A program made the position numbers and the translations under genes. The notes under the pieces are model-generated. The model was not told the DNA's origin. It saw only the letters and a list, made by a program, of their open reading frames with translations, and made no database searches. Of a DNA stretch of 64,000 nt, positions 4,788 through 61,384 are shown piece after piece. Origin of the DNA: Candidatus Uhrbacteria bacterium (GTDB lineage: Bacteria; Patescibacteriota; Patescibacteriia; UBA9934; GWF2-40-263); the NCBI GenBank assembly GCA_016188475.1, contig JACPHT010000008.1, forward strand, positions 150,192 through 214,191. Reading direction: 5' to 3'. The stretch's first letter is position 1, and each line of letters starts with the position of its first letter.

Positions 4788-5877
4788 ACATCGCGTCGCC
4801 AAAGGAAAAAAATCTGTATTTTTGAGCGACCGCTTCTTTGTACGCGCGCAAAACATTTTCTCTTCCAACAAAAGCTGAAACCAAAACCAACAATGTTGAT
4901 TTTGGTAAATGAAAATTCGTGATAAGTCCATCAATTATTTTGAAATCAAAACCTGGTTTGATAAATAAATTAACGTCACCTGTAAATGCGATAAAAGATC
5001 CTTCGCGGAGCTTACCCTGAGCAAAGTCGAAGGGCTCAGGATGACAACAAGAGGAAGCAACACCTTCAAGAGTCCGAACCGTTGTCGTTCCAACCGCGAT
5101 CACACGCCGTTTTTCTTTTTTTGCTTGATTGATTCGATCTGCAGTTTCTTTTGAAATCGAAACAAACTCGCTGTGCATTTCATGTTCTTCGATCGTTGCT
5201 GTTTTCATTGGACGAAAAGTTCCGATTCCAACATGAAGCGTTACAAATTCAAACTGAACGCCTTTTGATTTTAATTTTTCCATGAGATTTTCAGTGAAAT
5301 GAAACCCGGCTGTTGGCGCAGCAACAGAACCTGCCTCTTTTGCGTAAATGGTTTGATAATCTTCCAATCGCTCCGGCTTATTTTTGACGTAAGGAGGAAT
5401 CGGAATTTCGCCGTACTCATTTGCAAAAACGATAACGTCTTCTGGCGCGCGATCAAACTTCACTAAAACTATTCCGTCTGACTTTTTTTCAAAAACTTCA
5501 CAACAAAGTTTTTTAATCCCGTATTCGAGACAAATTGTCTGGCCGACTTGCACTTTTCTTCCTGGCCGCGCCATTGTTTCCCAAACATTATTTTCCCGAG
5601 CGCGCAACAAAAATATCTCAATCTCTGCTTTGACCTTTCCGACCTCTCGGTCATTTCCGACCTTTCCAATCATTCTTGCTCGAAAAACTTTCGTATCATT
5701 AAACACAAGTACGTCGCCTTCTTTAAGTTCATCAACAATCTCAAAAAATTTCTTGTGCTTCAACTTCCCTGTTTGCCTATCTAAAACCATTAGACGAGAA
5801 TGGTCGCGCGGCAAAATCGAATGTTGAGCAATCAATTCTTTTGGAAGATGATAATTGAATTCTTCAATTTGAGTCAT
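4777..5877 (-). CDS. queA: S-adenosylmethionine:tRNA ribosyltransferase-isomerase
   Basis: MTQIEEFNYHLPKELIAQHSILPRDHSRLMVLDR...VGTTTVRTLE; it carries an in-frame 9-bp repeat insertion at 5632-5667. Confidence 0.85.
   Translation of the reverse strand: MTQIEEFNYHLPKELIAQHSILPRDHSRLMVLDRQTGKLKHKKFFEIVDELKEGDVLVFNDTKVFRARMIGKVGNDREVGKVKAEIEIFLLRARENNVWETMARPGRKVQVGQTICLEYGIKKLCCEVFEKKSDGIVLVKFDRAPEDVIVFANEYGEIPIPPYVKNKPERLEDYQTIYAKEAGSVAAPTAGFHFTENLMEKLKSKGVQFEFVTLHVGIGTFRPMKTATIEEHEMHSEFVSISKETADRINQAKKEKRRVIAVGTTTVRTLEGVASSCCHPEPFDFAQGKLREGSFIAFTGDVNLFIKPGFDFKIIDGLITNFHLPKSTLLVLVSAFVGRENVLRAYKEAVAQKYRFFSFGDAMFIV
5632..5667. repeat. (GGTCGGAAA)n-family tandem repeat, in frame inside queA (encodes GKVGNDREVGKV)
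   Basis: Seen directly. Confidence 0.6.
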
Positions 5878-6330: not shown

Positions 6331-7398
6331 ATGTCCCTACTCGATAAACTACAATCTACAAAAAACCGATTTCAAGAACTCGAATCGCAACTCTCTGCGC
6401 CCGAGATTCTTTCAAATCCAAAAAAACTGCGTGAGGTTAATGAAGAATACTCGGATCTAAAAGAAGTTATTGACATTGCAAAGCGGTATGAAAAAGTGCT
6501 GGCGGATTTAAACGGAGCAAAAGAAACTCTCAAAGAATCAACAGACGAACAAATGCGCGAATTAGCTCAAACTGAAATCGAAACCTTGGAGGCCAGACTT
6601 CCATCGCTTGAAAGAGAGCTCCTGTATTCTCTTATTTCACCTGATCCAATGGATAAAAAAAATACGATTGTTGAAATTCGAGCTGGCGCAGGAGGAGATG
6701 AGGCCTCGCTTTTTGCGGCAGAACTTATGCGTATGTATATGCTCTACGCAGAGCAACAAGGATGGAAAACAGAACTCATTTCCTCAAATAGAAACGAAAT
6801 CGGGGGATTTAAAGAAATCATTTTGACAATCAAAGGTCACAATGTTTATAGCCGGCTCAAATACGAAAGCGGAGTACATAGAGTTCAACGAGTGCCAGAA
6901 ACCGAAAAACAAGGTCGTGTGCATACTTCAACTGTAACAGTCGCAATCTTGCCTGAAGCGGAAGAAATAGATGTACAAATCAAACCTGAAGATTTAAACA
7001 TTGAAGCAACAACAGCAGGTGGCCATGGCGGACAAAGCGTTAACACAACCTACTCGGCAATACGCATCACTCACATTCCAACTGGAATAATGGCGTCTTG
7101 CCAAGAAGAACGTTCACAAAAACAAAACAAAGAACGCGCTCTTTCAATTATTCGCGCGCGTGTGTTTGCTTTTGAACAAGAAAAAGCTCACAAGGAACGC
7201 GTAGAAGCGAGAAAAGGACAAATCGGAACCGGAGACAGATCAGAAAAAATCCGAACATATAATTTTCCGCAAGATCGAATTACAGACCATCGAATAAATG
7301 AAAACTTTCACAATATCACCGCTTTTATGAACGGCGGACTTGATGAATTGTTCGCGGCGTTGAAAGAAGCCGAGGTTGCGGAACAATTAGATCAATAA
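6331..7398 (+). CDS. prfA: peptide chain release factor 1
   Basis: GGQ motif (GGHGGQSVNTT) and RVPETE (the RF1 PxT region). Confidence 0.9.
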   Translation: MSLLDKLQSTKNRFQELESQLSAPEILSNPKKLREVNEEYSDLKEVIDIAKRYEKVLADLNGAKETLKESTDEQMRELAQTEIETLEARLPSLERELLYSLISPDPMDKKNTIVEIRAGAGGDEASLFAAELMRMYMLYAEQQGWKTELISSNRNEIGGFKEIILTIKGHNVYSRLKYESGVHRVQRVPETEKQGRVHTSTVTVAILPEAEEIDVQIKPEDLNIEATTAGGHGGQSVNTTYSAIRITHIPTGIMASCQEERSQKQNKERALSIIRARVFAFEQEKAHKERVEARKGQIGTGDRSEKIRTYNFPQDRITDHRINENFHNITAFMNGGLDELFAALKEAEVAEQLDQ

Positions 7399-7436
7399 AG
7401 AGCGTGTTTTGAAGAAACAGACTGACGACTTCTACA

Positions 7437-7518
7437 AAAGAGCGGTTGTATCGTGTCGTAGGGAACAACGGCGACAGTCCGATGGCCCGGAGACACGATA
7501 CAACCGCTCTTTTTTAAC
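7437..7518 (+). repeat. Long-stem hairpin element, copy 1, with conserved core GTCGTAGGGAACAACGGCGACAGTCCGATGGCCCGGAGAC; followed by a T-run, so it is a likely prfA terminator
   Basis: A ~20-bp stem (aagagcggttgtatcgtgtc / gacacgatacaaccgctctt) encloses the conserved core, then ttttttaacc. Confidence 0.6.
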
Positions 7519-7584: not shown

Positions 7585-8736
7585 TACCGTCAGTCAAGGC
7601 AACGCAAGTTGCAATGGCAGACAAGGCCTTCTTCGGAAGGCTGAGCCCCCCTTCGGGGAGATCGCGAAAAGGGCTGTACCGGTGCAAACTGGTCAAACCC
7701 TTCAAGCAAACGGCTCAAAAGAGCCGGCCGGCCTAAAACCGGATCATCCAGCGGAAACTTCGTCGCAAACACGTCTTTAAAAGATCCCGAAAGGGATTGA
7801 GATTCCAAGTAAAGATCCAGACTCCGAAAGGGGAAAAGATCTCAAAAAGGATCAAATAAGAATGTGGATGCGAAAAGCAAACAAAGCTGGACAAGTTGCG
7901 AAGCCCAAATGCTGGACAGAGGTTGGTCTTTCATCAGCCAAACGGAGCAACGGGTAACTCAAGCTCAAATGGCTGTTGATAGCCGATCGAAAACACATAA
8001 AAGGCTTCAAAAACTTGCGACTCGGTATATAAACCGGCGAAGGTCAGTGGTCCTCTTATCAGAGGATATCACTCAGCGAAAACCAGTGGTTCTTCGGAAC
8101 TCTAACGGTCGTAGCGTCTCAACGGGAAACCAATGAGAAGGAATAAATAGAGATAAGTCCTGTAAAAAGGATAAACTCTCCACCTGAGTGAGAAAAGAGC
8201 TTCGGCTCAACACCAGTGATCAGTCCATCTGAGGTTGAATTCCGCGTGTCTACTACTACTTGAATGCGCAAGCAAACAAGGAGCAGTGACAAAGGCGGAC
8301 TCCAGAGTAATCTGGATGTAGTGTCGAGAAATCGACATATATCAACACAGAGCCAATTCGACAACCGTTACAAGGTCTGGAGTCAAGGTGAAAACCTGAA
8401 ACTCAAGCCTAACAACCAGTTTTTTGGAGAAGCTCTTCGGGGCATCACCTTTAAACCAGTTGTGAAAGCAACAGCACCCTAGACGGAGCAACAAACGAAA
8501 GCGCGTTGTATGTCGAAAAGGAGTGGCCCGGGAGTAGGAATTAACTTGAAGTGATATATTGCGAAGTGTTTGGTGAGCGCCTTAACGGAGTTCCTGAACG
8601 CTGAACAGTGTTTCATCAATGGTTGATCCCTTCTCCCTGCCACTGGGCAAACCACATCTTCATGTCACTCTGATGGTCTCTACCATCTCTCCACCTCTTA
8701 ACGGCGCTCGGCTCCTCCGACGCCGTTCTTTTTTTA
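7585..8736 (+). ncRNA. Candidate large (~1.15 kb) highly structured ncRNA of unknown family
   Basis: No ORF longer than ~120 aa in any frame and markedly higher GC than its neighbours. Many short perfect stems are capped by UUCG or GNRA tetraloops (ccttcTTCGgaagg, ccccCTTCGgggg, gagcTTCGgctc, gttcTTCGgaac, atcccGAAAgggat, tgtcgaGAAAtcgaca, ggctcAAAAgagcc). It has its own promoter and ends at a strong intrinsic terminator. Confidence 0.55.
8700..8736 (+). terminator. Intrinsic terminator (aacggcgc-tcgg-ctcct-ccga-cgccgtt followed by T8)
   Basis: Seen directly. Confidence 0.6.
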
Positions 8737-18016: not shown

Positions 18017-18028
18017 AATATAGCATTG

Positions 18029-18118
18029 CCTGAGCCTGTCGAAGGCAGTAAAGATTATAGCCTGAGCCTGTCGAAGGCAGTAAAGATTATAGCCTGAGCC
18101 TGTCGAAGGCAGTAAAAA
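18029..18118. repeat. Three tandem copies of a 32-bp unit (CCTGAGCCTGTCGAAGGCAGTAAAGATTATAG); a related single copy lies at 58731-58751
   Basis: Seen directly; the copies are contiguous with no spacers. Confidence 0.7.
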
Positions 18119-18172
18119 ATACTTTAATTAAAAATAGTGGGAGTCTAAAAGACGCCAATACCACAAACTAAT

Positions 18173-18962: not shown

Positions 18963-19619
18963 ATGTCCGTTCTCACTCGACACGAAATCCTTAAAGCAAT
19001 TTCCTCTGGCGATATTCATTTCACGCCGGAGATTGATAAATTCCAACTGCAACCGCACGCGGTTGATTTGCGGCTTGGATACAAATTTTTAATTCCACGC
19101 AATTGGACAGTTGATGAAAAAGGACGTCGCGCAATCAAAGTCGCGATAGACGACGCGAGCACACATCAGGAACAGTTTGATGAGGTTCAACTTAAAGACG
19201 GACAATATTTTGATCTGCTTCCGAATGAATTTGTAATTGGAACATCACTTGAACGAATCGAAATCAACGCAATGAACCTCATGGCTGTTTTATTTCCTCG
19301 AACTTCAACAAACCGTCGTGGAATTGATCTGTCTCTTTCAGGAATAATTGATACTGGTTACAAAGGCAATCTTATTTTTCCAATGCAAAACGAGGCTGGA
19401 GATCAAGTCATTCGTATTTATCCTGGCGAACGTGTTTGCCAAGTTATTTTTCAAGAATTAAACATGTCTCTAACTCCTGAAGAAGCAAACATGCACGGGA
19501 TAACAGCTTCAAAATATACAGACTCAAATTCACAAAATTTCGTTTTGGATAAAGAAGAAGAACGTCAATTTTTAACATCAGGAAAATTGGAAGAATTGAA
19601 AAAGAAATTTGAGATATAA
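18963..19619 (+). CDS. dcd: dCTP deaminase (dUTPase superfamily), standard size
   Basis: HAVDLRLGYKF...GIIDTGYKGNLIF pattern. Confidence 0.7.
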   Translation: MSVLTRHEILKAISSGDIHFTPEIDKFQLQPHAVDLRLGYKFLIPRNWTVDEKGRRAIKVAIDDASTHQEQFDEVQLKDGQYFDLLPNEFVIGTSLERIEINAMNLMAVLFPRTSTNRRGIDLSLSGIIDTGYKGNLIFPMQNEAGDQVIRIYPGERVCQVIFQELNMSLTPEEANMHGITASKYTDSNSQNFVLDKEEERQFLTSGKLEELKKKFEI

Positions 19620-19642
19620 AAAAACGGAGCGATGAAGATTCA

Positions 19643-20098
19643 TCAAGCTCCGTAAGAACTGGTTTCAAGGTCGAGACATTCGAGTTTTTGTCTGCACAAG
19701 CCGCAAGTTTCGAGGTGCTCGAACGCGCGATCCAGAAATCCAAGATTTTCTGGATTTTCAGACATAGTGACTCTGCACTCACGTTTCTCGTCGTCAAAGA
19801 CGGCTTGAAACTGAAAGTATGGAACATACAAATGGTATGCAAGCGAACAATCCACACAAAGACGACCGTCCCAAACGATCCATTGTTTTCTGCCTTCTAT
19901 ATGATGCATATGACGTGGATCGATCGAAGCCATAATCGGCAAACGTCCTCGATCAGGAACCAACAAAGTGAAACGGATACTGTACAGTTGCGTTCGACAC
20001 TCGAAGTTGTGTATTAGGTCCAAATTCCTAGACTTGAGCCTTATCGGGCATGCCGGGACATTTTCCCAGAACCGAATGTGTTGAGTTGAAAAAGTCAT
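19643..20098 (-). CDS. hypothetical protein; third gene of a GC-rich 3-gene cassette
   Basis: ORF, co-oriented with and tightly spaced to its neighbours. Confidence 0.35.
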   Translation of the reverse strand: MTFSTQHIRFWENVPACPIRLKSRNLDLIHNFECRTQLYSIRFTLLVPDRGRLPIMASIDPRHMHHIEGRKQWIVWDGRLCVDCSLAYHLYVPYFQFQAVFDDEKRECRVTMSENPENLGFLDRAFEHLETCGLCRQKLECLDLETSSYGA

Positions 20099-20113
20099 CT
20101 ACCTTTCCTCACT

Positions 20114-20566
20114 TTACTCGTCTACTTCGACGAGCCAGCGCCAGTTGTTATTGAATCCGCCTTCTGACAAGTCAAAAAATGGAACGCAGGTCTGTCCACT
20201 GTCAGCCCGAATGCACGGAAACAGGAAATAGCTGTACTGATCCCTCCATGAATCATCAGCGATTCCGACTGTTCCACCGCCATCAGCACTCTGGAACTTT
20301 GTGATCAATACCTCACGCCATTGACCTTCTGGAATTTTGCCGTGTTCTTTTAGAATTGCTACGACCGTACTGAAATGATCGCAACATCCAATTGTAATGA
20401 GCTTGAAACGGCGCGTTTGAACGCCTTTCACGAGTTTGCCTCTGTGTCGCCATTTCTCAAACCCGACTTCCCCGCTCCTATGAACCATTTCTATCGGGTC
20501 GTTATCTGGAGCGCTTCCGTCAAGTGTAAGTTCAAAGACCTCACCAAGAGCTGGAAAACATGCCAT
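20114..20566 (-). CDS. hypothetical protein; second gene of the GC-rich cassette
   Basis: ORF. Confidence 0.35.
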   Translation of the reverse strand: MACFPALGEVFELTLDGSAPDNDPIEMVHRSGEVGFEKWRHRGKLVKGVQTRRFKLITIGCCDHFSTVVAILKEHGKIPEGQWREVLITKFQSADGGGTVGIADDSWRDQYSYFLFPCIRADSGQTCVPFFDLSEGGFNNNWRWLVEVDE

Positions 20567-20674
20567 GAGTCATTTCCCTTTAACTCACTGCTTGATTGCA
20601 GCTTTCAAAAGACGTTCTTGCCATCTTCTCAAAGCCACGATAAAACCAATAAAAGAAGCCAAAAGATTACTTGA

Positions 20675-21046
20675 TTATGACGAATCTGTCAATGTTGGCT
20701 TGACAAAAACAAGATCATCACTCGCACCAAACGTGAGGCCGGATCTGGAATCAATCCGATCAAAATTTCGAGCAACGAGTGGGCAGTAATGCTCAAATTC
20801 ACATTCGCCTTGTGGCTCGACTCCGCTGAAGGACAGAAGTACACGACGGTCGGAGATTCCAACCGACACCTCGACAATGGCCAGATCGGAACAATAAATG
20901 GCGTCCCGGTCATTGTCGTCCCAAATCTTGAGGATCGTCTGCCAACCCCACCATCTGGTGTTAGGTAGCCGTTCTTTCTCCACCCATGTCCGACTAGGGC
21001 GTGGGTGCTTTTTATTTTCGATAAAAAAACTTAATTCATATTTCAC
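20675..21046 (-). CDS. hypothetical protein; first gene of the GC-rich cassette
   Basis: ORF. Confidence 0.35.
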   Translation of the reverse strand: MKYELSFFIENKKHPRPSRTWVEKERLPNTRWWGWQTILKIWDDNDRDAIYCSDLAIVEVSVGISDRRVLLSFSGVEPQGECEFEHYCPLVARNFDRIDSRSGLTFGASDDLVFVKPTLTDSS

Positions 21047-21077
21047 TTAACTACCGATCGGGAGTTAAGTGTGATAA
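21044..21077. repeat. Palindromic element, copy A (CACTTAACT(A/C)CCGATCGGGAGTTAAGTGTGAT)
   Basis: 28-bp hairpin with one mismatch plus a TGTGAT extension. Confidence 0.7.
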
Positions 21078-21086
21078 AGTTTAATT

Positions 21087-21662
21087 ATGTCTAAAAACAT
21101 CTCTTCAAATTCTGTTCCATCTAGAATCTTCGATGTGCTCTTATCAGAAGCCGATGATCTTCTATTTTTATTTCATCATCCTCATGCAGTGTTACGAACA
21201 GTAGGAAATATTGAATCTGCACGTAACATGCTCGCACGAAAAGAACGAAATCTTCAACGAATTAAAAAAACAGAAATCAACCAGGCCTTGCAACGACTCA
21301 ATTCGCAAAAATTACTGCGGATAAGTAAAAAGGGTAATGAAATTTACTTCTTTTTGACTGAAAATGGCATAAAAGAGGGTTTGAAACGTACAATTCAAAA
21401 GAAGAAACAACGTCTTGCAGGCAAACGACGTTGTTACGTGAGTTTTGATATTCCTGAACAAGCAAGTTCTACACGGTGGGCATTAAGAAAACTTTTGAAA
21501 GATTCACACTTCAAAATGATTCATCTTAGTTTATGGAGTTCTGAATTCGACGTTGGAAAAGAAATGGCGGCGTTGATAAAAATAATGAGAGCCGAAACAT
21601 GGGTACACGTTTTCGAAGCAAGGGCTCTAACTTCCATTAACAAAAAAAGCAAAAACTCGTAA
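21087..21662 (+). CDS. hypothetical protein: an N-terminal winged-HTH-like region plus a C-terminal region with a Cas2/VapD-like sequence pattern
   Basis: C-terminal RRCYVSFDIPEQASSTRWALRKLLKDSHFKMIHLSLWSS resembles the Cas2 beta1-alpha1-beta2 core (YD[IV]...R.LRK.L...G.R.Q.SVFEC). It is flanked on both sides by the 38-bp palindrome. There is no cas1 or CRISPR array nearby. Confidence 0.45.
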   Translation: MSKNISSNSVPSRIFDVLLSEADDLLFLFHHPHAVLRTVGNIESARNMLARKERNLQRIKKTEINQALQRLNSQKLLRISKKGNEIYFFLTENGIKEGLKRTIQKKKQRLAGKRRCYVSFDIPEQASSTRWALRKLLKDSHFKMIHLSLWSSEFDVGKEMAALIKIMRAETWVHVFEARALTSINKKSKNS

Positions 21663-21693
21663 TCACACTTAACTCCCGATCGGGAGTTAAGTG
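21661..21693. repeat. Palindromic element, copy B (AATCACACTTAACTCCCGATCGGGAGTTAAGTG), between convergent gene ends
   Basis: Perfect palindrome seen directly. Confidence 0.7.
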
Positions 21694-21694
21694 T

Positions 21695-22609
21695 TTACAG
21701 TTGTCTCAAAACGTTCTTCAACATACGACATGCTTCTTCTGTGGTTTCGTATTTGATGTGATAAACAATTGCTGGATTTCCAAGCGCAAAATTTGAAATC
21801 ACTGAATCTTTTTTTGAAATAAGCACGATTGGTTTTTCAAACATGTAAGCGAGAACGAGTTCGCCACCAGCTCCCAAAGATGGATTTGAAACATCAGCTA
21901 TGAGCACATCACAATTTTTGATTTTATTTTCAGTCCAATCATAAACCGCGCGAACGTCACGCTCTTCGCGTGGTTTTTTATTTTCAGGATTATCACGAAA
22001 TGGAATTATTGGTTCACAACCTAATTCATCACACACACGACCAAGCGCTTCGTGAACAACTTTATCATCAGCCAAACCATTATTGTTTGTATACGATCCA
22101 GCTATGTAGGCTGATTTTACAGTTGGTTTAAGTGTTTTTGAATACACTCTATCGCGATTAAACTCAACATGTGCGTTTGCTAGTAAATACACATTGCGAA
22201 TTCCATTTTCAATCATCACGTTCCAACATTGCTCGCAACACCACCAATGGCCGTACAAATAAATATCCGATCCTGACGGATCAATTCCCGACTCATTTGC
22301 AACAGCAATTACCATTTGTTCTGCATGTCCTGGAGCGTCGTGTAAATGACACAAATCATATCCTGTTCCACTAGGACACTCCAACACAACTCGAGGACAA
22401 ACATGTCTCGTGCCAGAACCTTTATTAAACCCATTTCCGGCTCGAGTGAAAATTTTTCCGTCTCTAACTAACACTGCTCCAACTGGATACAACCTGTCGC
22501 CTGCACAATCCTCGCGTGCGCGCGCCGCTTCTTGCATGAATGGATCGTCCGCACTGACAAAATAAAAAACTTTTCCATCAGGCAAAAATGGATACTCTAT
22601 TTCTGGCAT
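21695..22609 (-). CDS. Fusion protein: dCMP (cytidine/deoxycytidylate) deaminase domain plus a nucleoside 2-deoxyribosyltransferase-like (Rcl/DNPH1-like) domain
   Basis: Zinc motifs HAEQMVI and PCxxC-type WWCCEQC in the N-terminal half. The C-terminal half has AYIAGSY...SLGAGGELVLAYMFEKPIVLI, matching the NDT-family Rossmann signature. Confidence 0.65.
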   Translation of the reverse strand: MPEIEYPFLPDGKVFYFVSADDPFMQEAARAREDCAGDRLYPVGAVLVRDGKIFTRAGNGFNKGSGTRHVCPRVVLECPSGTGYDLCHLHDAPGHAEQMVIAVANESGIDPSGSDIYLYGHWWCCEQCWNVMIENGIRNVYLLANAHVEFNRDRVYSKTLKPTVKSAYIAGSYTNNNGLADDKVVHEALGRVCDELGCEPIIPFRDNPENKKPREERDVRAVYDWTENKIKNCDVLIADVSNPSLGAGGELVLAYMFEKPIVLISKKDSVISNFALGNPAIVYHIKYETTEEACRMLKNVLRQL

Positions 22610-23117: not shown

Positions 23118-23161
23118 TAAAGATATTCTTCGTCGCTTCGCTCCTCAGAATGACGAAAAGA

Positions 23162-35540: not shown

Positions 35541-35623
35541 AAACAGAAGCGATAGCGTCATGTCGTAGGGAACAGCGGCGAGGAGTCCGCTGGCCCGTAG
35601 ACATGGCATGTCGCTTCTGTTTG
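35541..35623 (+). repeat. Long-stem hairpin element, copy 2 (core GTCGTAGGGAACAGCGGCGAGGAGTCCGCTGGCCCGTAGAC)
   Basis: Same core as copy 1 in a different, self-complementary stem. Confidence 0.6.
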
Positions 35624-36955: not shown

Positions 36956-37017
36956 GTCATTGCGAGGAGGAGTAAAGCGACGACGAAGCAATCTGACCCA
37001 TTGGGTCATTAGATTAA
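36956..37017. repeat. Partial copy of the GTCATTGCGAGG...GCGACGAAGCAATCT nested-palindrome family
   Basis: Matches the copies at 45530-45612 and 55811-55891. Confidence 0.5.
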
Positions 37018-37096
37018 AAAAGAGCAGTTTGTACTATGTCGAAGGGAACAACGGCGAAGAGTCCGTTGGCCCGGAGACATGGTACAAACTGCTCGA
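37015..37096 (+). repeat. Long-stem hairpin element, copy 3 (core GTCGAAGGGAACAACGGCGAAGAGTCCGTTGGCCCGGAGAC); acts as a terminator for the minus-strand gene 37204-37815
   Basis: 20-bp stem; the A-run on the plus side is a U-run on the minus transcript. Confidence 0.6.
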
Positions 37097-45520: not shown

Positions 45521-45529
45521 ATTATTTTT

Positions 45530-45612
45530 GTCATTGCGAGAGAGCGCCAGCGACCGAAGCAATCTCTTTGCTTAGATTGCTTCGTCGTCACTACGTTCCT
45601 CCTCGCAATGAC
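45530..45612. repeat. Nested palindromic element GTCATTGCGAG...cgaagcaatct-loop-agattgcttcg...CTCGCAATGAC, between pheS and rseP
   Basis: Seen directly. Confidence 0.65.
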
Positions 45613-55810: not shown

Positions 55811-55891
55811 GTCATTGCGAGGAGCGAAGCGACGAAGCAATCTATGCGAATTAAGAGATTGCTTCGCTCCCTTTTGGTCGCTCGCAATGAC
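55811..55891. repeat. Nested palindromic element (GTCATTGCGAG family); it overlaps the 5' end of the track ORF for the pilin gene
   Basis: Seen directly. Confidence 0.65.
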
Positions 55892-57410
55892 AAATAGGAT
55901 TATTTTTTTATTTCTTTCTTTGTTCATAATTTTCGCACCGATTAGAACTTTCGCGGCTTCGACTTGCTATTGTTATTTCGGAGAAAAAAATGATTGCGCA
56001 CAAACATCTGTAGATGAAAATGCGATTATTGATGAATGTCAGCTCACATGCGAAACAAAATATCAAGACACTTTCAAAAGTGTAGATTTCACTGACGAAG
56101 CAGGTGGAGCAAACGATGTATTGGCACTAATGGATTGTTCATCAGCTCACGCAGACGCAAATGAAGCAGCAACAAAACCTTTCCAAGGAGGCGTTATTCC
56201 AAAATTGAACGTGGATATTCCAACAGTCACCTTTACTCCAGTTCTTCAAAAAGGCGGAAACTTATCAATCAATTTTTTAGCTGACTACATTCAGGGCGTT
56301 TATATTTATCTTTTATCAATAGCGGCAATCATCGCCGTAGTTTATATGATGATTGGAGGTTTGAGGTGGGTGCTTGCGGCTGGAGGCGCATCAAACATTG
56401 GCGAAGCAAAAACAATGATAAAAAATGCTGTGATCGGACTTGTTTTATTATTAAGCGTTGTTCTTATTTTAGAAACCGTAAACCCGCAACTCGCAACATT
56501 TAACCCATTTACAATTGAACGAATTCAAGAAGTAACAATTGATGAACAACAACATGCGCAAGATGCTGAAGAAGAATCTCAAGAACCTACAACACCTACT
56601 CAAGTACCAGCACCTTCAGGAACAGAAGGAACAAAAGTTTCTCTTGCATATTCAGATGGTGGAAGATTAAAAATGGAATATATCCAATTACCGCTTGATG
56701 CTGGCGATGAATATATCACTCCGCCACGCGTTTGCACTGTTCCTGTCCCTTCTGAACCAGCTTCATTGAGTGGTGTTGAAATAAATACAAAGTTTCTTGG
56801 TAATCTAGATTGTAATATCTCAAAACAAACGAAAAATAAAAAACGACCAGATAGTCAGATCAAGATGGTTATTCTACATCAAGGTTTTAAAAGCGATGGA
56901 GGACAAAATGGAAGTATGTGGTTCCAAAATTATGTTTATGGAACAACTGTGGTGTGCAAAAAAGAAAAATCTGGTGTGTTTAATTACAAAGCCTGCCAAC
57001 GAAACGGACAAAAATTGGTAAAACAGCCGACATTAAACCAAACGCCAATCGGAAGTCATTTTGCTGTAACTTTAGGTGGAACGATCTATCAATTAGCTGA
57101 TGTTGGACATATAATGAACCATTGCTGCGCGGAAAACAAAATTTCGGTTGGAATCGATTTGCAGTACGACATCGAAGGTGGAAAAAATGTATATTCAGAT
57201 TCTCAATATAAAAGTCTAGCAAAACTTATCAAAGGACTTAGTGAAAAATATAAATTTCCAATTGACGACAGCACGATAAAAGGCCATTGCGAACTTGGGA
57301 AGCATTCTGATCCTCCAAATTTCGATCTTAAAAAACTCGGAAACTTAATGGGCGTAACATTGGACCCAGGTCAGCATGGGAATGCAAAATGCAGCTGGGT
57401 CGCCTCATAA
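55887..57410 (+). CDS. TrbC/VirB2-like pilin domain protein fused to a C-terminal N-acetylmuramoyl-L-alanine amidase (amidase_2/PGRP-like) domain
   Basis: Signal peptide MTNRIIFLFLSLFIIFAPIRTFAAS; hydrophobic pilin-like segment (YIYLLSIAAIIAVVYMMIGGLRWVLAAGG); C-terminal ISVGIDLQYD and KGHCELGKHSDPPNFD amidase-like motifs. Confidence 0.55.
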   Translation: MTNRIIFLFLSLFIIFAPIRTFAASTCYCYFGEKNDCAQTSVDENAIIDECQLTCETKYQDTFKSVDFTDEAGGANDVLALMDCSSAHADANEAATKPFQGGVIPKLNVDIPTVTFTPVLQKGGNLSINFLADYIQGVYIYLLSIAAIIAVVYMMIGGLRWVLAAGGASNIGEAKTMIKNAVIGLVLLLSVVLILETVNPQLATFNPFTIERIQEVTIDEQQHAQDAEEESQEPTTPTQVPAPSGTEGTKVSLAYSDGGRLKMEYIQLPLDAGDEYITPPRVCTVPVPSEPASLSGVEINTKFLGNLDCNISKQTKNKKRPDSQIKMVILHQGFKSDGGQNGSMWFQNYVYGTTVVCKKEKSGVFNYKACQRNGQKLVKQPTLNQTPIGSHFAVTLGGTIYQLADVGHIMNHCCAENKISVGIDLQYDIEGGKNVYSDSQYKSLAKLIKGLSEKYKFPIDDSTIKGHCELGKHSDPPNFDLKKLGNLMGVTLDPGQHGNAKCSWVAS

Positions 57411-57413
57411 TCT

Positions 57414-58706
57414 ATGTTCATCTGCACTCACTGCGACGCGCAATCCCAAAAATGGGCCGGACGGTGTTTTGAATGTCAGAAATGGGGAACGCTTGTTGAG
57501 CAAGAAACATCAATTAAAAAAACATCATCAGTTTCAAACGCTCGCGCAAAAGAATCAAAAAAACTTTCGGAACTTTCCGGGCAAAACGAGCACGAACGAA
57601 TTCAAACACTCGAACCTGAAATAGATCGTGTGCTTGGAGGAGGGATTGTAAAAGGATCTCTTGTTCTTTTATCTGGAGAACCCGGAATCGGTAAGTCAAC
57701 GCTTGTGGCTGAAATTGCAAAACGTTTTGTTGAACAAGGAAATCCTGTTTTGTACATCTCTGGAGAAGAGTCAGCGCCACAGCTCAAAACAAGATTTGAT
57801 CGCTTGAACACAAAATTAGATCAACTTTTTTTTCTAGAAGCAGGTTCTGTCGAAGCAATCGTTCAAACTATTGAAAAAGAAAAACCAAAAGTTGTTGTGA
57901 TTGATTCAATTCAAACATTATTTTCAGATGGAATCGACAGCACTGCCGGAAGCCCGACAACAGTTCGCTACGCGACTTCCCTTTTGCTTGAACTTGCAAA
58001 ACGAACTCATGTTTCAATTTTTCTGATCGGCCAAGTTACAAAAGACGGCATGGTCGCAGGCCCAAAAACTCTTGAACATTTGGTTGATGTTGTTTTATCG
58101 CTTGACGGAGATTCATCGCATTCATATCGCTGGCTCTCATGTTCCAAAAATCGTTTTGGAGCAATAGAAGAAGTCGGAGTTTTTGAAATGACATCTCATG
58201 GCCTTGAGCCGGTCACAAATCCATCAGCAAAATTTTTAGAAGAACGAGTTGCGGTGCCTGGTTCTGTAATTGCCGCGACAGTTGAAGGTTCGCGAGTATT
58301 TTTGGTTGAAATTCAAGCGCTTGTTGAAAAAACCGCTTATGGAATTCCGGTTAGGCGCGCGTCTGGATTTGATCAAAACCGTCTGCAAATGTTAATTGCA
58401 ATACTTTCAAAACGAGCAGGGCTCAAACTCGGAGAACAAGATATTTATGTAAACGTGATAGGCGGAATGAAAGTTACAGAACCGGCTGTTGATCTTGCGG
58501 TTTGCGCGGCTATTGTGAGCGCGTCAAAAAATATCGCGTTCGCAGATCCAGTGGTTTTCTTCGGCGAAGTCGGACTCGGTGGAGAAGTTAGACGTGTGAC
58601 AGCATCTGAAAAACGAAATGCTGAATCAAAACGTCTTGGAATCAAAAAAATCTTTGGTCCAGAGATTGAAAATGTAAAGCACATCGTTTCATTGCTGTCA
58701 TCATAA
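57414..58706 (+). CDS. radA: DNA repair protein RadA/Sms
   Basis: Zn finger (CTHCDAQSQKWAGRCFEC), RecA-like GEPGIGKST, and Lon-like C-terminus. Confidence 0.9.
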   Translation: MFICTHCDAQSQKWAGRCFECQKWGTLVEQETSIKKTSSVSNARAKESKKLSELSGQNEHERIQTLEPEIDRVLGGGIVKGSLVLLSGEPGIGKSTLVAEIAKRFVEQGNPVLYISGEESAPQLKTRFDRLNTKLDQLFFLEAGSVEAIVQTIEKEKPKVVVIDSIQTLFSDGIDSTAGSPTTVRYATSLLLELAKRTHVSIFLIGQVTKDGMVAGPKTLEHLVDVVLSLDGDSSHSYRWLSCSKNRFGAIEEVGVFEMTSHGLEPVTNPSAKFLEERVAVPGSVIAATVEGSRVFLVEIQALVEKTAYGIPVRRASGFDQNRLQMLIAILSKRAGLKLGEQDIYVNVIGGMKVTEPAVDLAVCAAIVSASKNIAFADPVVFFGEVGLGGEVRRVTASEKRNAESKRLGIKKIFGPEIENVKHIVSLLSS

Positions 58707-58760
58707 GCCCTTCGACTTCGGTAAAGTTATTGCCTGAGCCTGTCGAAGGCCATAACTTTA
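58707..58760 (+). terminator. Hairpin containing the TTGCCTGAGCCTGTCGAAGGC repeat unit, downstream of radA
   Basis: agcccttcgac ... gtcgaaggcc inverted repeat. Confidence 0.35.
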
Positions 58761-58787: not shown

Positions 58788-60839
58788 TCATTCCAAATGT
58801 GCTTCCTCAAAAGTTGCACGGATTTTTTCTAAAATGAGTGGATACTTTTCAAGTTCTGGATCCTCATTGAGCAATTTTGTTGTCCAATCAAAAGTCATTT
58901 TCATAATATCAACATCAGCCGGTGTCGCAAATTGAAAATCTGGAAAACCTGATTGAGCATTTCCAAATATATTCCCTGCTCCGCGAAGTTCCAGATCTTT
59001 TTCTGCGAGTTCGAATCCGTTTTGTGTTTGTTCAAGTGTTCGCAAACGCTCAAGTGCGATCTCGCTTGCATCATCCGACAGTAAATAACAATATGATCTT
59101 AGATCGCTTCTCCCAACACGACCACGAAGTTGATGGAGTTGCGCCAAACCAAATCGTTCTGCCCCAAAAATTACCATAACAGTTGCGTTAGGAACATCAA
59201 CTCCAACTTCCACAACAGTTGTTGAAACAAGAACATTTGTTTTTCCATCTTTGAATTTTTGTATAGCTTCTTGTTTTTCATCAGACTTTAATCTTCCATG
59301 CAAAATACCAATCTTGTAATCTTTAAGAGGACCTTTTTTAAGTTGTTCGCTAACATCGGTAACACTTTTCGCTCCTTGTTTATCAGATGGATCAATAAGC
59401 GGACACACTATATAAACCTGTTGCCCAAGCTTTATTTGACCCTTCACATGTTGCCACATTCCAGTACGGTGATTAGATGAAACAATCGCAGTTCCGATTG
59501 GTTTTCTGCCTTTTGGAAGCTGTGAGATAGCTGAAATATCTAAATCTCCATAAACAGTAAGGGCAAGCGAACGCGGAATTGGAGTGGCTGTCATTGATAG
59601 AAGATGTGCTGAAATTTGTCTCCCCTTCTCTAAGAGAGCATGACGTTGAGCCACACCAAAACGGTGTTGTTCGTCCACAATTACAAATGCAAGATTTGGA
59701 ATCTCGACCATCTCATCAAGCAAAGCGTGCGTGCCGACAACACAACGAACGTCACCGTTTTTTAATTTTTGCAAAAGTTCATCTTTTTTAACATCTTCAT
59801 CTCCAATCCGTTTTTGTGAACGAGTAAAAAGCGCTACTTTATACAATGGTAAAAATTTAGAAAAAACCGCTTGTTGTTGCGCCGCAAGAATTTCAGTTGG
59901 CGCAAGATATACAACCGCAAGATTATTTGAAAGAACGCTGTTTGCCGCGATTGCCGCAACAACAGTTTTTCCAGAGCCAACGTCCCCATGAAGCAAACGA
60001 TTCATAGGATTAGGTTTTGCAAGATCCTGAACAATCTCCCATGCGGCTTTTCGTTGGGCTGATGTAAGTTCAAACGGCAGTTGAGCAACAAATGTCTTCA
60101 AGACTTGTTCATTGATAGGAATTGTATGCGACTTACGTTTTTTGCGATCTTGTCTTGAACGCGCAAACATAAGTTGATGTAAAAATAATTCATCAAACTT
60201 TAAACGCTCGATCGCTTGGGTTAAATCTTTTTGATTTTCAGGAAAATGCACACTTTGGATTGCTTGCGACAAATCTGTATAAGCCGCTCTTTCTCTAATT
60301 GATTCTGGAATCCAATCAACTAGCTCATTTGAAGCTGAAAGAGCCGCGTTGATTGCTGTACGCAAGCGCTTCATTGTAAGCGAACCGGATAAACCATAAA
60401 CAGGAACGATCCTGCCTGTATGAACCCGCTTTCCCTCCGCCTCAAACACAGGATTTACGAGTGCTTTTCCAAAACGAAAATCTACTCGTCCAGAAAACGA
60501 AAGTCGTATGCCAGGACGTATGGTTTCGGTTAGATATTTTTGATTGAACCAAATGATCGGCAGTGTCCCGGTTTCATCTTCGATCACCGCGTCAACAATA
60601 GTCATTCTGCGACTTTTTGCTGGTCGTGAGTTAATAGAAACTATTACCCCACTCACTGTTACTGTTTCACCAGCTTTTACTTTTACGATTGGTTTGATAT
60701 TTGAAAAATCGTCATAGCGAAACGGAACATAAAACAAAAGATCATAAACAGAAAGAACCCCCATGTTTTTGAGGTCTTTAACTGCTTTTCCTCCAATTCC
60801 TGGGAGTTCAGAAACAGATGAGGATAAATGAAGCGCCAT
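58788..60839 (-). CDS. recG: ATP-dependent DNA helicase RecG
   Basis: Wedge domain plus helicase motifs (GDVGSGKTVVA). Confidence 0.9.
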   Translation of the reverse strand: MALHLSSSVSELPGIGGKAVKDLKNMGVLSVYDLLFYVPFRYDDFSNIKPIVKVKAGETVTVSGVIVSINSRPAKSRRMTIVDAVIEDETGTLPIIWFNQKYLTETIRPGIRLSFSGRVDFRFGKALVNPVFEAEGKRVHTGRIVPVYGLSGSLTMKRLRTAINAALSASNELVDWIPESIRERAAYTDLSQAIQSVHFPENQKDLTQAIERLKFDELFLHQLMFARSRQDRKKRKSHTIPINEQVLKTFVAQLPFELTSAQRKAAWEIVQDLAKPNPMNRLLHGDVGSGKTVVAAIAANSVLSNNLAVVYLAPTEILAAQQQAVFSKFLPLYKVALFTRSQKRIGDEDVKKDELLQKLKNGDVRCVVGTHALLDEMVEIPNLAFVIVDEQHRFGVAQRHALLEKGRQISAHLLSMTATPIPRSLALTVYGDLDISAISQLPKGRKPIGTAIVSSNHRTGMWQHVKGQIKLGQQVYIVCPLIDPSDKQGAKSVTDVSEQLKKGPLKDYKIGILHGRLKSDEKQEAIQKFKDGKTNVLVSTTVVEVGVDVPNATVMVIFGAERFGLAQLHQLRGRVGRSDLRSYCYLLSDDASEIALERLRTLEQTQNGFELAEKDLELRGAGNIFGNAQSGFPDFQFATPADVDIMKMTFDWTTKLLNEDPELEKYPLILEKIRATFEEAHLE

Positions 60840-60967
60840 AATTTTAATTATGGTAGTCGTTTGTTTCAGTCAATGCAAGGTTCATCAATCAAAAATTTTT
60901 AACTTTTTCCGTATTTGAATGAGTAGAATTATACTAAACAAAATAAGAATCCTTAAAAAAGTTCAAA

Positions 60968-61000
60968 CACTTAACTCCCGATCGGGAGTTAAGTGTGATT
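60968..61000. repeat. Palindromic element, copy C (CACTTAACTCCCGATCGGGAGTTAAGTGTGATT), upstream of recG and downstream of the tRNA cluster
   Basis: Seen directly. Confidence 0.7.
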
Positions 61001-61183: not shown

Positions 61184-61260
61184 CTGGTGCGCCCGACAGG
61201 GTTCGAACCTGTGGCCTACAGCTCCGCAAGCTGTCGCTCTATCCAGCTGAGCTACGGGCG
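61184..61260 (-). tRNA. tRNA-Arg, anticodon read as GCG
   Basis: Cloverleaf GCGCCCG-TAGCTCAGCTGGATAGAGC-ACAGC/TTGCGGA/GCTGT-AGGCC-ACAGGTTCGAACCCTGT-CGGGCGC-ACCA, with an encoded CCA end. Confidence 0.75.
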
Positions 61261-61322
61261 CAGATATTAGCCAAAGAATGGACATTTTATTTCCGAGCGA
61301 GGCGACGTGATTTGATTCCATC

Positions 61323-61344
61323 AGATCCAGCTGAGCTACGAGCG
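61323..61344 (-). other. 22-nt duplicate of the 5' end of the tRNA-Arg (one mismatch); a pseudo-tRNA or att-like remnant
   Basis: tccagctgagctacgagcgc vs tccagctgagctacgggcgc, 62 bp apart. Confidence 0.5.
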
Positions 61345-61384
61345 CAGACACAAGCCAACAGATCGCCAATTTTGGAGGTTTTGC

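Follow-up and report, generated by a model that had tools for sequence, protein, structure and literature searches.

A short PaaX-like protein and the palindromes that bracket its gene in a Candidatus Uhrbacteria genome: a probable autoregulatory pairing

Why should a small gene lie exactly between two copies of one palindrome, with a further copy standing elsewhere in the same DNA near recG? The question is raised by a stretch of 64,000 nucleotides (nt) from Candidatus Uhrbacteria bacterium, an uncultured groundwater organism represented by a metagenome-assembled genome (GenBank assembly GCA_016188475.1, contig JACPHT010000008.1, positions 150,192 to 214,191), the whole of which we refer to as the window. 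An earlier note, made from the letters of this DNA alone, had pointed out an open reading frame (ORF) of 191 amino acids (aa) with a winged helix-turn-helix (wHTH) and a Cas2-like half, and had offered two readings: either a transcription factor whose operator is the palindrome, controlling its own gene and recG, or a minimal mobile cassette. We favor, with a probability of roughly 0.6, an autorepressor whose gene has a cognate site at either end, the other palindrome copies being lineage-specific additional sites. The features concerned are as follows.

20981..21017 (+): terminator-like hairpin with T-run; 11-pair stem with 7 G-C pairs and the tail CTTTTTATTT; it ends the upstream transcription unit before copy 1.
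21044..21075 (no strand): palindrome copy 1; core 21044-21071 with one mismatch (C>A) and a TGAT extension on the gene side; a candidate operator that would overlap the promoter of the gene itself.
21072..21080 (+): putative extended -10 box TGaTAAAGT, as read from the sequence, 6 nt before the ATG.
21087..21662 (+): mini-PaaX gene; wHTH at about residues 42-105 and Cas2-like domain at residues 114-179 (nt 21426-21623), without the PaaX C-terminal domain.
21661..21693 (no strand): palindrome copy 2; perfect core 21666-21693 plus a gene-proximal AATCA, the stop codon TAA being part of it; proposed second cognate site.
60965..61000 (no strand): palindrome copy 3; perfect core 60968-60995; solitary, in the 345-nt spacer between tRNA-Arg and recG.

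The 191-aa frame was present as claimed, on the plus strand. The repeat needed revision: even with 3 mismatches allowed, the window contains nothing that matches the 38-bp perfect palindrome quoted in the earlier note, and what recurs is a 28-bp core, CACTTAACTCCCGATCGGGAGTTAAGTG, in three copies; these include the one reported between the transfer RNA (tRNA) cluster and recG, which is perfect. A full palindrome of 36-38 bp, aATCACACTTAACTACCGATCGGTAGTTAAGTGTGATt, does occur in the sister genome JACQXU01. A chance repeat was ruled out, as 0 copies were expected in 100 shuffles. The core of copy 1 ends 15 nt 5' of the start codon and that of copy 2 begins 3 nt after the stop, where the mini-PaaX and deaminase genes converge. 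Every window copy carries a TGAT(T/A) extension on one side only (right in copies 1 and 3, left in copy 2), and 36 bp of copy 2 recur unchanged, but inverted, in copy 3.

What kind of protein lies between the two sites could be established with some confidence. Pfam matched residues 117-186 to PF20803, the 'PaaX protein central Cas2-like domain' (39.2 bits against a gathering cutoff of 24, E 7.4e-10), a family for which all homologues have a precomputed match. The PaaX equivalog model TIGR02277 aligned to residues 60-183 with 22.5 bits against a cutoff of 264.55, so that the protein fails the equivalog test. The PaaX-type N-terminal Pfam model gave no match to the 191-aa protein and PaaX_C none at E≤10, the protein ending 5 residues past the PF20803 match; a PHROGs scan returned nothing meaningful. 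An AlphaFold2 model built on 61 family sequences (predicted local distance difference test score, pLDDT, 86.5; predicted template modeling score 0.79) has a wHTH (recognition helix 61-73, wing 77-90) that runs contiguously, as in PaaX structures, into a beta-alpha-beta-beta-alpha-beta domain at 114-179; this is the model reported, an 8-sequence alignment having given an unusable one (pLDDT 45.9). The only Foldseek match below E 1e-3 was PaaX from E. coli W (8a39, probability 1.0 over 179 columns), followed in rank by the PaaX-like 3kfw and 3l09, with Cas2 chains (5xvn_F, 8q2n_A, 5zyf, 3exc, 8ia4) aligned to the C-terminal half and ArsR/SmtB repressors to the N-terminal one. By sequence, the family profile finds ArsR-type wHTH repressors (E 2e-4) and Cas2 (E 9e-3).

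The ORF product is a 'mini-PaaX', that is, the PaaX wHTH and Cas2-like domain minus the C-terminal effector domain, and the call of a wHTH joined to a Cas2-like fold was borne out by the PF20803 match, the confident model and the Foldseek matches. The earlier note had set a PaaX-type regulator against a Cas2-like fold as if one would count against the other. The protein is indeed of PaaX type, but wHTH plus Cas2-like domain make up the N-terminal two thirds of PaaX; the two descriptions are therefore not alternatives, and both are true. In PaaX the Cas2-like domain serves as a dimerisation motif (PMC9493321), and the Cas2-like half here is, by analogy, the PaaX dimerisation domain. An exhaustive homologue search (E≤1e-3) gave 695 clusters at 50% identity; among the best 150 of these, almost all members are 160-200 aa long, and the JGI annotation of one member reads 'DNA-binding transcriptional regulator PaaX'. 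Our literature search found no paper linking PaaX with Cas2 or with Patescibacteria.

The evidence that ties protein and palindrome together comes from related loci (designated by L numbers below). Both flanks of the gene were readable in ten lineages, 5 metagenome loci having been contributed by a 14-sequence family profile search, and in nine of the ten a single motif stands on both flanks while protein identity to the window ranges from ~31% to 100%. Between the end of the upstream copy and the start codon there are 7-31 nt, 3-70 nt separate the stop codon from the downstream copy, and the centers of the two copies are 611-679 bp apart. In L021 the upstream palindrome is present and no downstream copy was detected. 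The motif changes along with the protein:

Window clade, 88-100% protein identity: flanking motif CACTTAACTCCCGATCGGGAGTTAAGTG.
L015 and L012, 63-65% protein identity: flanking motif CATTATACTTCCGATCGGAAGTATAATG.
L013, 53% protein identity: flanking motif CATTAAACTTCCAATTGGAAGTTTAATG.
L017, 35% protein identity: flanking motif AAAATACTTCGCAGCTGCGAAGTATTTT.
L024, L025 and L026, about 33-37% protein identity: further motif variants.
L020, 37% protein identity: 41-bp direct repeat, identical at 41/41 positions.
L018, about 31% protein identity: 28-bp direct repeat.

The upstream position is occupied by the same motif in the orthologues L004 and L027, and by a different sequence in L011, L012, L013, L015, L017, L020, L021, L024, L025 and L026. 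Co-variation of motif and protein over so wide a divergence is what a cognate pair of protein and DNA site predicts, and not what generic terminators predict. The palindrome is most likely the operator of mini-PaaX, and we infer that the protein binds the 28-38-bp sequence as a symmetric dimer.

Where the upstream copy lies relative to the putative promoter is consistent with autoregulation. Copy 1 would cover the -35/spacer region and abut the extended -10 box, at the place where orthologues have TGaTATACT (L027) and TGtTACACT (L004), and the mini-PaaX messenger RNA (mRNA) is probably leaderless or near-leaderless. A perfect TATAAT lies inside the right arm of the upstream copy in L011, L012, L013 and L015; the downstream copies of L012, L013 and L015 deviate exactly at this hexamer (GTTTTTTG, GTTTAATG and GTCTTATG), and the downstream flank of L011 ends at the contig end. 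Because copy 1 overlaps the putative promoter, its occupation would exclude RNA polymerase, and the protein would repress its own transcript. Such occlusion by a bound dimer would parallel that by PaaX at its own Px promoter (PMC9493321). E. coli PaaX represses its own promoter and binds a 39-bp inverted repeat, TGATTC-N27-GAATCA, a span close to the 36-38 bp of the palindrome discussed here (PMC9493321). We had also considered kinship of the outer AATCA/TGATT to the E. coli half-sites TGATTC/GAATCA; it was dropped and carries no weight, the orientation being everted.

Palindromes at gene ends could also be RNA or DNA hairpins, serving as bidirectional terminators or as stabilisers of mRNA ends, with the protein either unrelated to them or using its Cas2-like domain to bind the hairpin in RNA. 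The stems fold strongly (-21 to -24 kcal/mol, z about -6; copy 2 folds as a 13-pair hairpin of -23.7 kcal/mol), copy 2 is situated between convergent genes, the downstream copy of L012 has A- and T-runs that lend it the look of a bidirectional terminator, a symmetric double substitution in JACQXU01 preserves pairing, and the window holds other dispersed families of small repeats. The upstream copy fits this explanation poorly, since a separate terminator precedes it and a start codon follows: the hairpin at 20981-21017 closes the upstream unit, so that copy 1 is not needed as a terminator (an equivalent terminator-like hairpin is found 5' of the palindrome in L012 and L015), and the upstream copy would go untranscribed if the -10 box lies within or after it. 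A scan for hairpin-plus-T-run terminators flagged none of the three window copies. The motifs of L018 and L020 are non-palindromic direct repeats, that of L020 being self-complementary at 4/41 positions and folding no better than its shuffles (z -0.05); hairpin formation is not the feature shared across the family. Generic terminators, which would not be expected to co-vary with one protein over 9 lineages, were rejected as the family-level explanation on the grounds that the motif is not always a hairpin, matches no hairpin-plus-T-run consensus in the window and co-varies with the protein, and we consider the hairpin explanation highly improbable.

Returning to the autorepressor, the downstream copy requires a function of its own. 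The gene that follows it is convergent in 7 of 9 lineages, and the downstream site therefore cannot be a promoter operator for the neighbor. Most likely it would either pair with the upstream site through a loop of ~620 bp around the gene or act as a protein roadblock combined with a hairpin against read-through from the convergent dCMP-deaminase/DHFR/thyA operon.

As to mobility, gene and sites together stand between dcd and the deaminase gene in four cases (the window, DeMMO2_27, JACQXU01 and L015); for L012 this could be seen at least for the deaminase side. The position is thus kept across lineages with 63-100% identical proteins. The locus shows no sign of mobility. The earlier note had read the surrounding island for synthesis of deoxythymidine monophosphate (dTMP) as fitting accessory DNA and had suggested a search for presence or absence of the cassette between dcd and the deaminase gene; in the relatives compared, the dTMP cluster is conserved, gene and sites stay in place, and the only variable part is the stretch from dcd to the upstream palindrome.

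The solitary copies are a different matter. In a pattern scan of species-representative genomes, the palindrome was found only in two Uhrbacteria metagenome-assembled genomes; the pattern was not found in viral contigs. DeMMO2_27 has the two bracket copies only, and thus 0 solitary ones, while this genome has at least 1 and JACQXU01 has 7, for a total of ~9 in the JACQXU01 assembly including the bracket, whose downstream copy was missed by the exact-pattern scan on account of a symmetric double change. No solitary copies were seen in the 9-20 kb flanks available from seven other lineages. The seven in JACQXU01 are located as follows.

14 nt before the enolase start.
Between a cytidylyltransferase-like gene and alr.
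Between two glycosyltransferase family 2 (GT2) genes.
After a Wzy-like gene.
Before a leucyl aminopeptidase gene.
L005 (JACQXU010000003.1) 1205-1232: 68 nt after a large serine recombinase gene, 58-1137 (Recombinase and Zn_ribbon_recom domains).
In frame inside a glycosyltransferase family 4 (GT4) gene.

The last of these codes for SHLTTDRELSV in a variable linker and is shared by three orthologues that are 64-66% identical to each other (L014 and P0011 among them); it is missing from the closest homologue, P0012, as well as from P0013 and P0014, in which the linker is of equal length. At the DNA level it comprises 35 identical bases amid flanks that are, by estimate from the alignment, roughly three-quarters identical. 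Since the linker is not lengthened and the copy is kept at 64-66% identity, it is old and conserved and not a fresh insertion. A single polysaccharide operon, Wzx - GT4 - GT2 - GT2, holds both the GT4 and the GT2 copy at a distance of 1305 bp (JACQXU010000031.1, L008 and L006 joined, 7235-7262 and 8540-8567).

These copies have to be considered in light of the second reading of the earlier note, a minimal mobile or recombining cassette. In such a REP/RAYT-like system (after repetitive extragenic palindromes, REP, and their associated transposases) the wHTH would target the palindrome and the Cas2-like domain would cut or join DNA. In its form as a mobile unit, nicking or joining through the invariant Asp would seed palindromes, including the in-frame one, or would shuttle a circle of gene plus site from one solitary palindrome to another, for which we see little likelihood. 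Were it true, this would be a minimal selfish or recombining unit of a kind not described before, in which a Cas2 fold underlies a system of the REP/RAYT type and which might be kin to the ancestor of the CRISPR adaptation machinery. It would account for repeats that hug the gene (15 nt from its start and 3 nt from its stop), for the direct-repeat flanks of L018 and L020, as after integration of a circle, and for solitary copy numbers of 7 (near-identical) in JACQXU01, 0 in DeMMO2_27 and at least 1 in this genome. The absence of degenerate copies from the window, the in-frame GT4 copy that P0012, P0013 and P0014 do not have, the invariance of residue D121 and the variable stretch beside copy 1 fit as well. 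It does not fit that no movement is seen in lineages with 63-100% identical proteins, that target-site duplications are not visible around the solitary copies, that the GT4 copy is old, that no paralogous copies or pseudogenes of mini-PaaX were found, that the 9-20 kb flanks of seven other lineages are free of solitary copies, or that the Cas2-like domain is a dimerisation motif in PaaX (PMC9493321). No transposase or recombinase is associated with the cassette, and with gene and sites staying put the reading as a mobile cassette is not supported; we judge it unlikely.

A binder of chromosome-architecture or segregation sites (parS/ParB-, AspA- or matS-like) in place of a gene regulator, with few near-perfect sites per genome, some of them intragenic, and a pair nucleating at its own gene, would also have solitary sites. 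The ~9 near-identical sites of JACQXU01, the all-or-none quality of the sites and the conservation of the intragenic site at the DNA level over 35 identical bases all agree with such a role. Yet the wHTH matches are generic, DeMMO2_27 has nothing beyond its two bracket copies, other lineages show the bracket only within 9-20 kb, and no gene for a partner ATPase is adjacent, and we give this explanation a low probability too.

For the autorepressor, copy 3 and the seven JACQXU01 copies would be lineage-specific extra sites. Whether copy 3 serves recG is another question. The earlier note had proposed control of both the regulator's own gene and recG; autoregulation is supported by the place of copy 1 in the promoter region and by the co-variation of motif and protein, but control of recG is unsupported, because copy 3 lies 128 nt upstream of the recG start, its locus gave no match in JACQXU01 or JAGVFR01 (by exact-pattern scan only, orthologous DNA not having been compared), and the syntenic tRNA-Arg/recG spacer of L023, 59 nt long, has an ordinary terminator and no palindrome. 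L023, with 64% RecG identity, represents one more distant lineage, a search with the RecG N-terminus having given partial proteins of ≤64% identity. Near the expanded spacer that holds copy 3 we noted that the 5' part of tRNA-Arg (GCG, minus strand) is duplicated 84 nt away (61241-61288 against 61325-61372, 79% identity), perhaps the remnant of a tRNA or a scar left by integration. Upstream of the tRNA/recG locus in L022/L023 (240-7497), a Hainich groundwater lineage, there is a block resembling conjugation or type IV secretion genes (PrgI, TraC-like and TraG P-loop ATPase domains).

Several observations weigh against the autorepressor. A strict consensus promoter scan called nothing at copy 1. 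Since the protein has no recognisable effector domain, there is no evident signal for de-repression, and D121, the Cas2-type Asp after beta-1, is invariant in the 61-sequence alignment and may have a catalytic role. Unlike the graded sites of a regulon, the window has three copies at ≤1 mismatch and zero at 2-10 mismatches. The downstream copy of JACQXU01 carries its symmetric double change (CACATAAC...GTTATGTG) with arms still complementary, suggesting a constraint on arm-to-arm pairing beyond protein half-sites. Most awkward are the solitary copies: their number varies from 0 to 7, those of JACQXU01 are near-identical over 34-38 bp, which suggests recent copying, and one is in frame inside a gene and old. 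They misfit a classical graded regulon and leave some probability with the mobile and the architectural readings.

The gene neighborhood was as claimed in the earlier note. A domain scan of ten flanking genes identified dcd, a fusion of deoxycytidine monophosphate (dCMP) deaminase and nucleoside deoxyribosyltransferase, dihydrofolate reductase (DHFR), thyA and dut; recG occupies 58788..60839 (-) with Pfam RecG_wedge and helicase domains, and tRNA-Arg (61185-61261) and two tRNA-Ser are present. dCMP deaminase and nucleoside 2-deoxyribosyltransferase form a single 304-aa fusion in the window (21695..22609), in L015 and in DeMMO2_27, whereas JACQXU01 has a pair of overlapping gene calls for them, of 173 and 120 aa (L027 10608..11484).

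Upstream of copy 1 the earlier note had seen a GC-rich block of three genes, for which our results are mixed. The ORF at 20114..20566 (-) is backed by codon-position divergence, with 50 mismatches at third positions against 20 and 20 at the other positions in comparison with one orthologue. No such divergence was found for the minus-strand ORF at 20675..21046, which we rejected as a gene; the stretch is a truncated plus-strand gene that is intact in relatives. In DeMMO2_27 and L015 (9406..9918) this gene encodes 170-175 aa, while the window retains a 59-aa remnant at 20789..20968 (+), the C-terminal part, which is followed by the terminator, ~340 bp having been lost in the 20567-21040 region; JACQXU01 has a 478-aa ORF in its place. 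A 455-bp segment at 19657-20111 (45% GC against 41% for the window), with a 151-aa ORF (19643..20098, -) that has no Pfam, PADLOC or PHROG match, occurs in none of the relatives compared; in DeMMO2_27 and L015, which are without it, dcd is directly followed by a 150-aa gene. That the moderately GC-rich block might be a known RNA was ruled out: Rfam found three tRNAs only across the window, and 19600-21100 was empty even at E≤1.

Other repeats are present in the window. A second family, GTCATTGCGAGGAG...CGACGAAGCAATCT, of 27-42 nt and in both orientations, is found at 23128-23154, 36956-36994, 45527-45568, 45574-45612, 55811-55837 and 55853-55894. One copy falls within the 5' end of the ORF called as DHFR (translated ...VILRSEATKNI...), which suggests that the true DHFR start is further downstream. 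A third, ATTGCCTGAGCCTGTCGAAGGCAGTAAAGATT, is found at 18025-18120, 58727-58760 and, inverted, 2248-2277, with related sequences at 5013-5050 and 58692-58729; the space between a 125-aa gene and rplA has three copies in tandem, and single ones are found just downstream of recG and elsewhere. A unit of ~60-85 nt occurs three times (7433-7516, 35548-35611 and 37024-37087), its first copy having a 25-nt inverted repeat that is 96% complementary; it matches no Rfam family at gathering score and may be a small structured RNA or another repeat element.

What appears to be new is the conservation of putative cognate sites at both ends of a regulator gene in a large family, mostly from the candidate phyla radiation, together with a lineage-specific spread of the candidate operator. 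We know of almost nothing on gene regulation in uncultured candidate-phyla-radiation bacteria, and comparative genomics alone has here yielded a testable pairing of protein and operator for a family of short PaaX-like proteins (about 700 clusters) that is so far uncharacterised. Should looping, or a roadblock against convergent transcription, lie behind the layout, autoregulation would here take a compact form well fitted to very dense genomes. The spread of near-identical candidate operator copies, one of them intragenic, is an opportunity to study the multiplication of binding sites. A 'Cas2-like' pattern met outside CRISPR loci can, moreover, be simply the dimerisation domain of PaaX.

Among known systems PaaX itself, the repressor of the paa genes that responds to phenylacetyl-CoA, is the closest. 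The present protein, at 191 aa, is shorter than PaaX with its roughly 305-316 aa (E. coli W, PDB 8A39), it has no PaaX_C domain, the part that binds the inducer phenylacetyl-CoA, its neighbors are dTMP-synthesis genes with no paa genes nearby, and its host is a candidate-phyla-radiation bacterium. Cas2, of the CRISPR adaptation module, and VapD are also close; with Cas2 the protein shares the ferredoxin-like fold, here fused to a wHTH, and the sequence likeness is marginal (profile E 9e-3). The Asp that follows beta-1 in Cas2, a metal-dependent nuclease, has its equivalent in the invariant D121. As the earlier note had stated, there is no CRISPR array, CRISPR-like spaced repeats not being found in 64 kb, and in those ORFs that were scanned we noticed no cas gene, for which reasons a CRISPR or Cas role was rejected. 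PADLOC found no cas match in five proteins (the mini-PaaX ORF, two adjacent window ORFs and two ORFs of related loci), and cas1 was not noticed among the few window ORFs scanned, no systematic search of the whole window having been made for it. To our knowledge, a second cognate site right after the stop codon, as conserved in the present family, has not been described for PaaX.

REP/RAYT systems (REPINs) resemble the locus in that a gene is flanked by palindromes (inverted in this genome), near-identical copies are dispersed in intergenic DNA and copy number varies between close relatives. Unlike them, the locus matches no Y1 (HUH) transposase of the IS200/IS605 type, Pfam, NCBIfam and fold searches giving PaaX, wHTH and Cas2 only; there are about 3-9 copies per genome and not tens to hundreds; the copies are singlets and not inverted doublets; and the flanked gene is syntenic, with the motif in its own promoter. 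The layout itself has a counterpart in phage lambda, where the operators OR and OL lie on both sides of the gene for CI and are joined by a DNA loop. The folds of the two regulators are unrelated, and looping and oligomerisation beyond the dimer are proposals in the present case; the likeness is that two operator clusters would bracket the regulator's own transcription unit, one of them overlapping its promoter.

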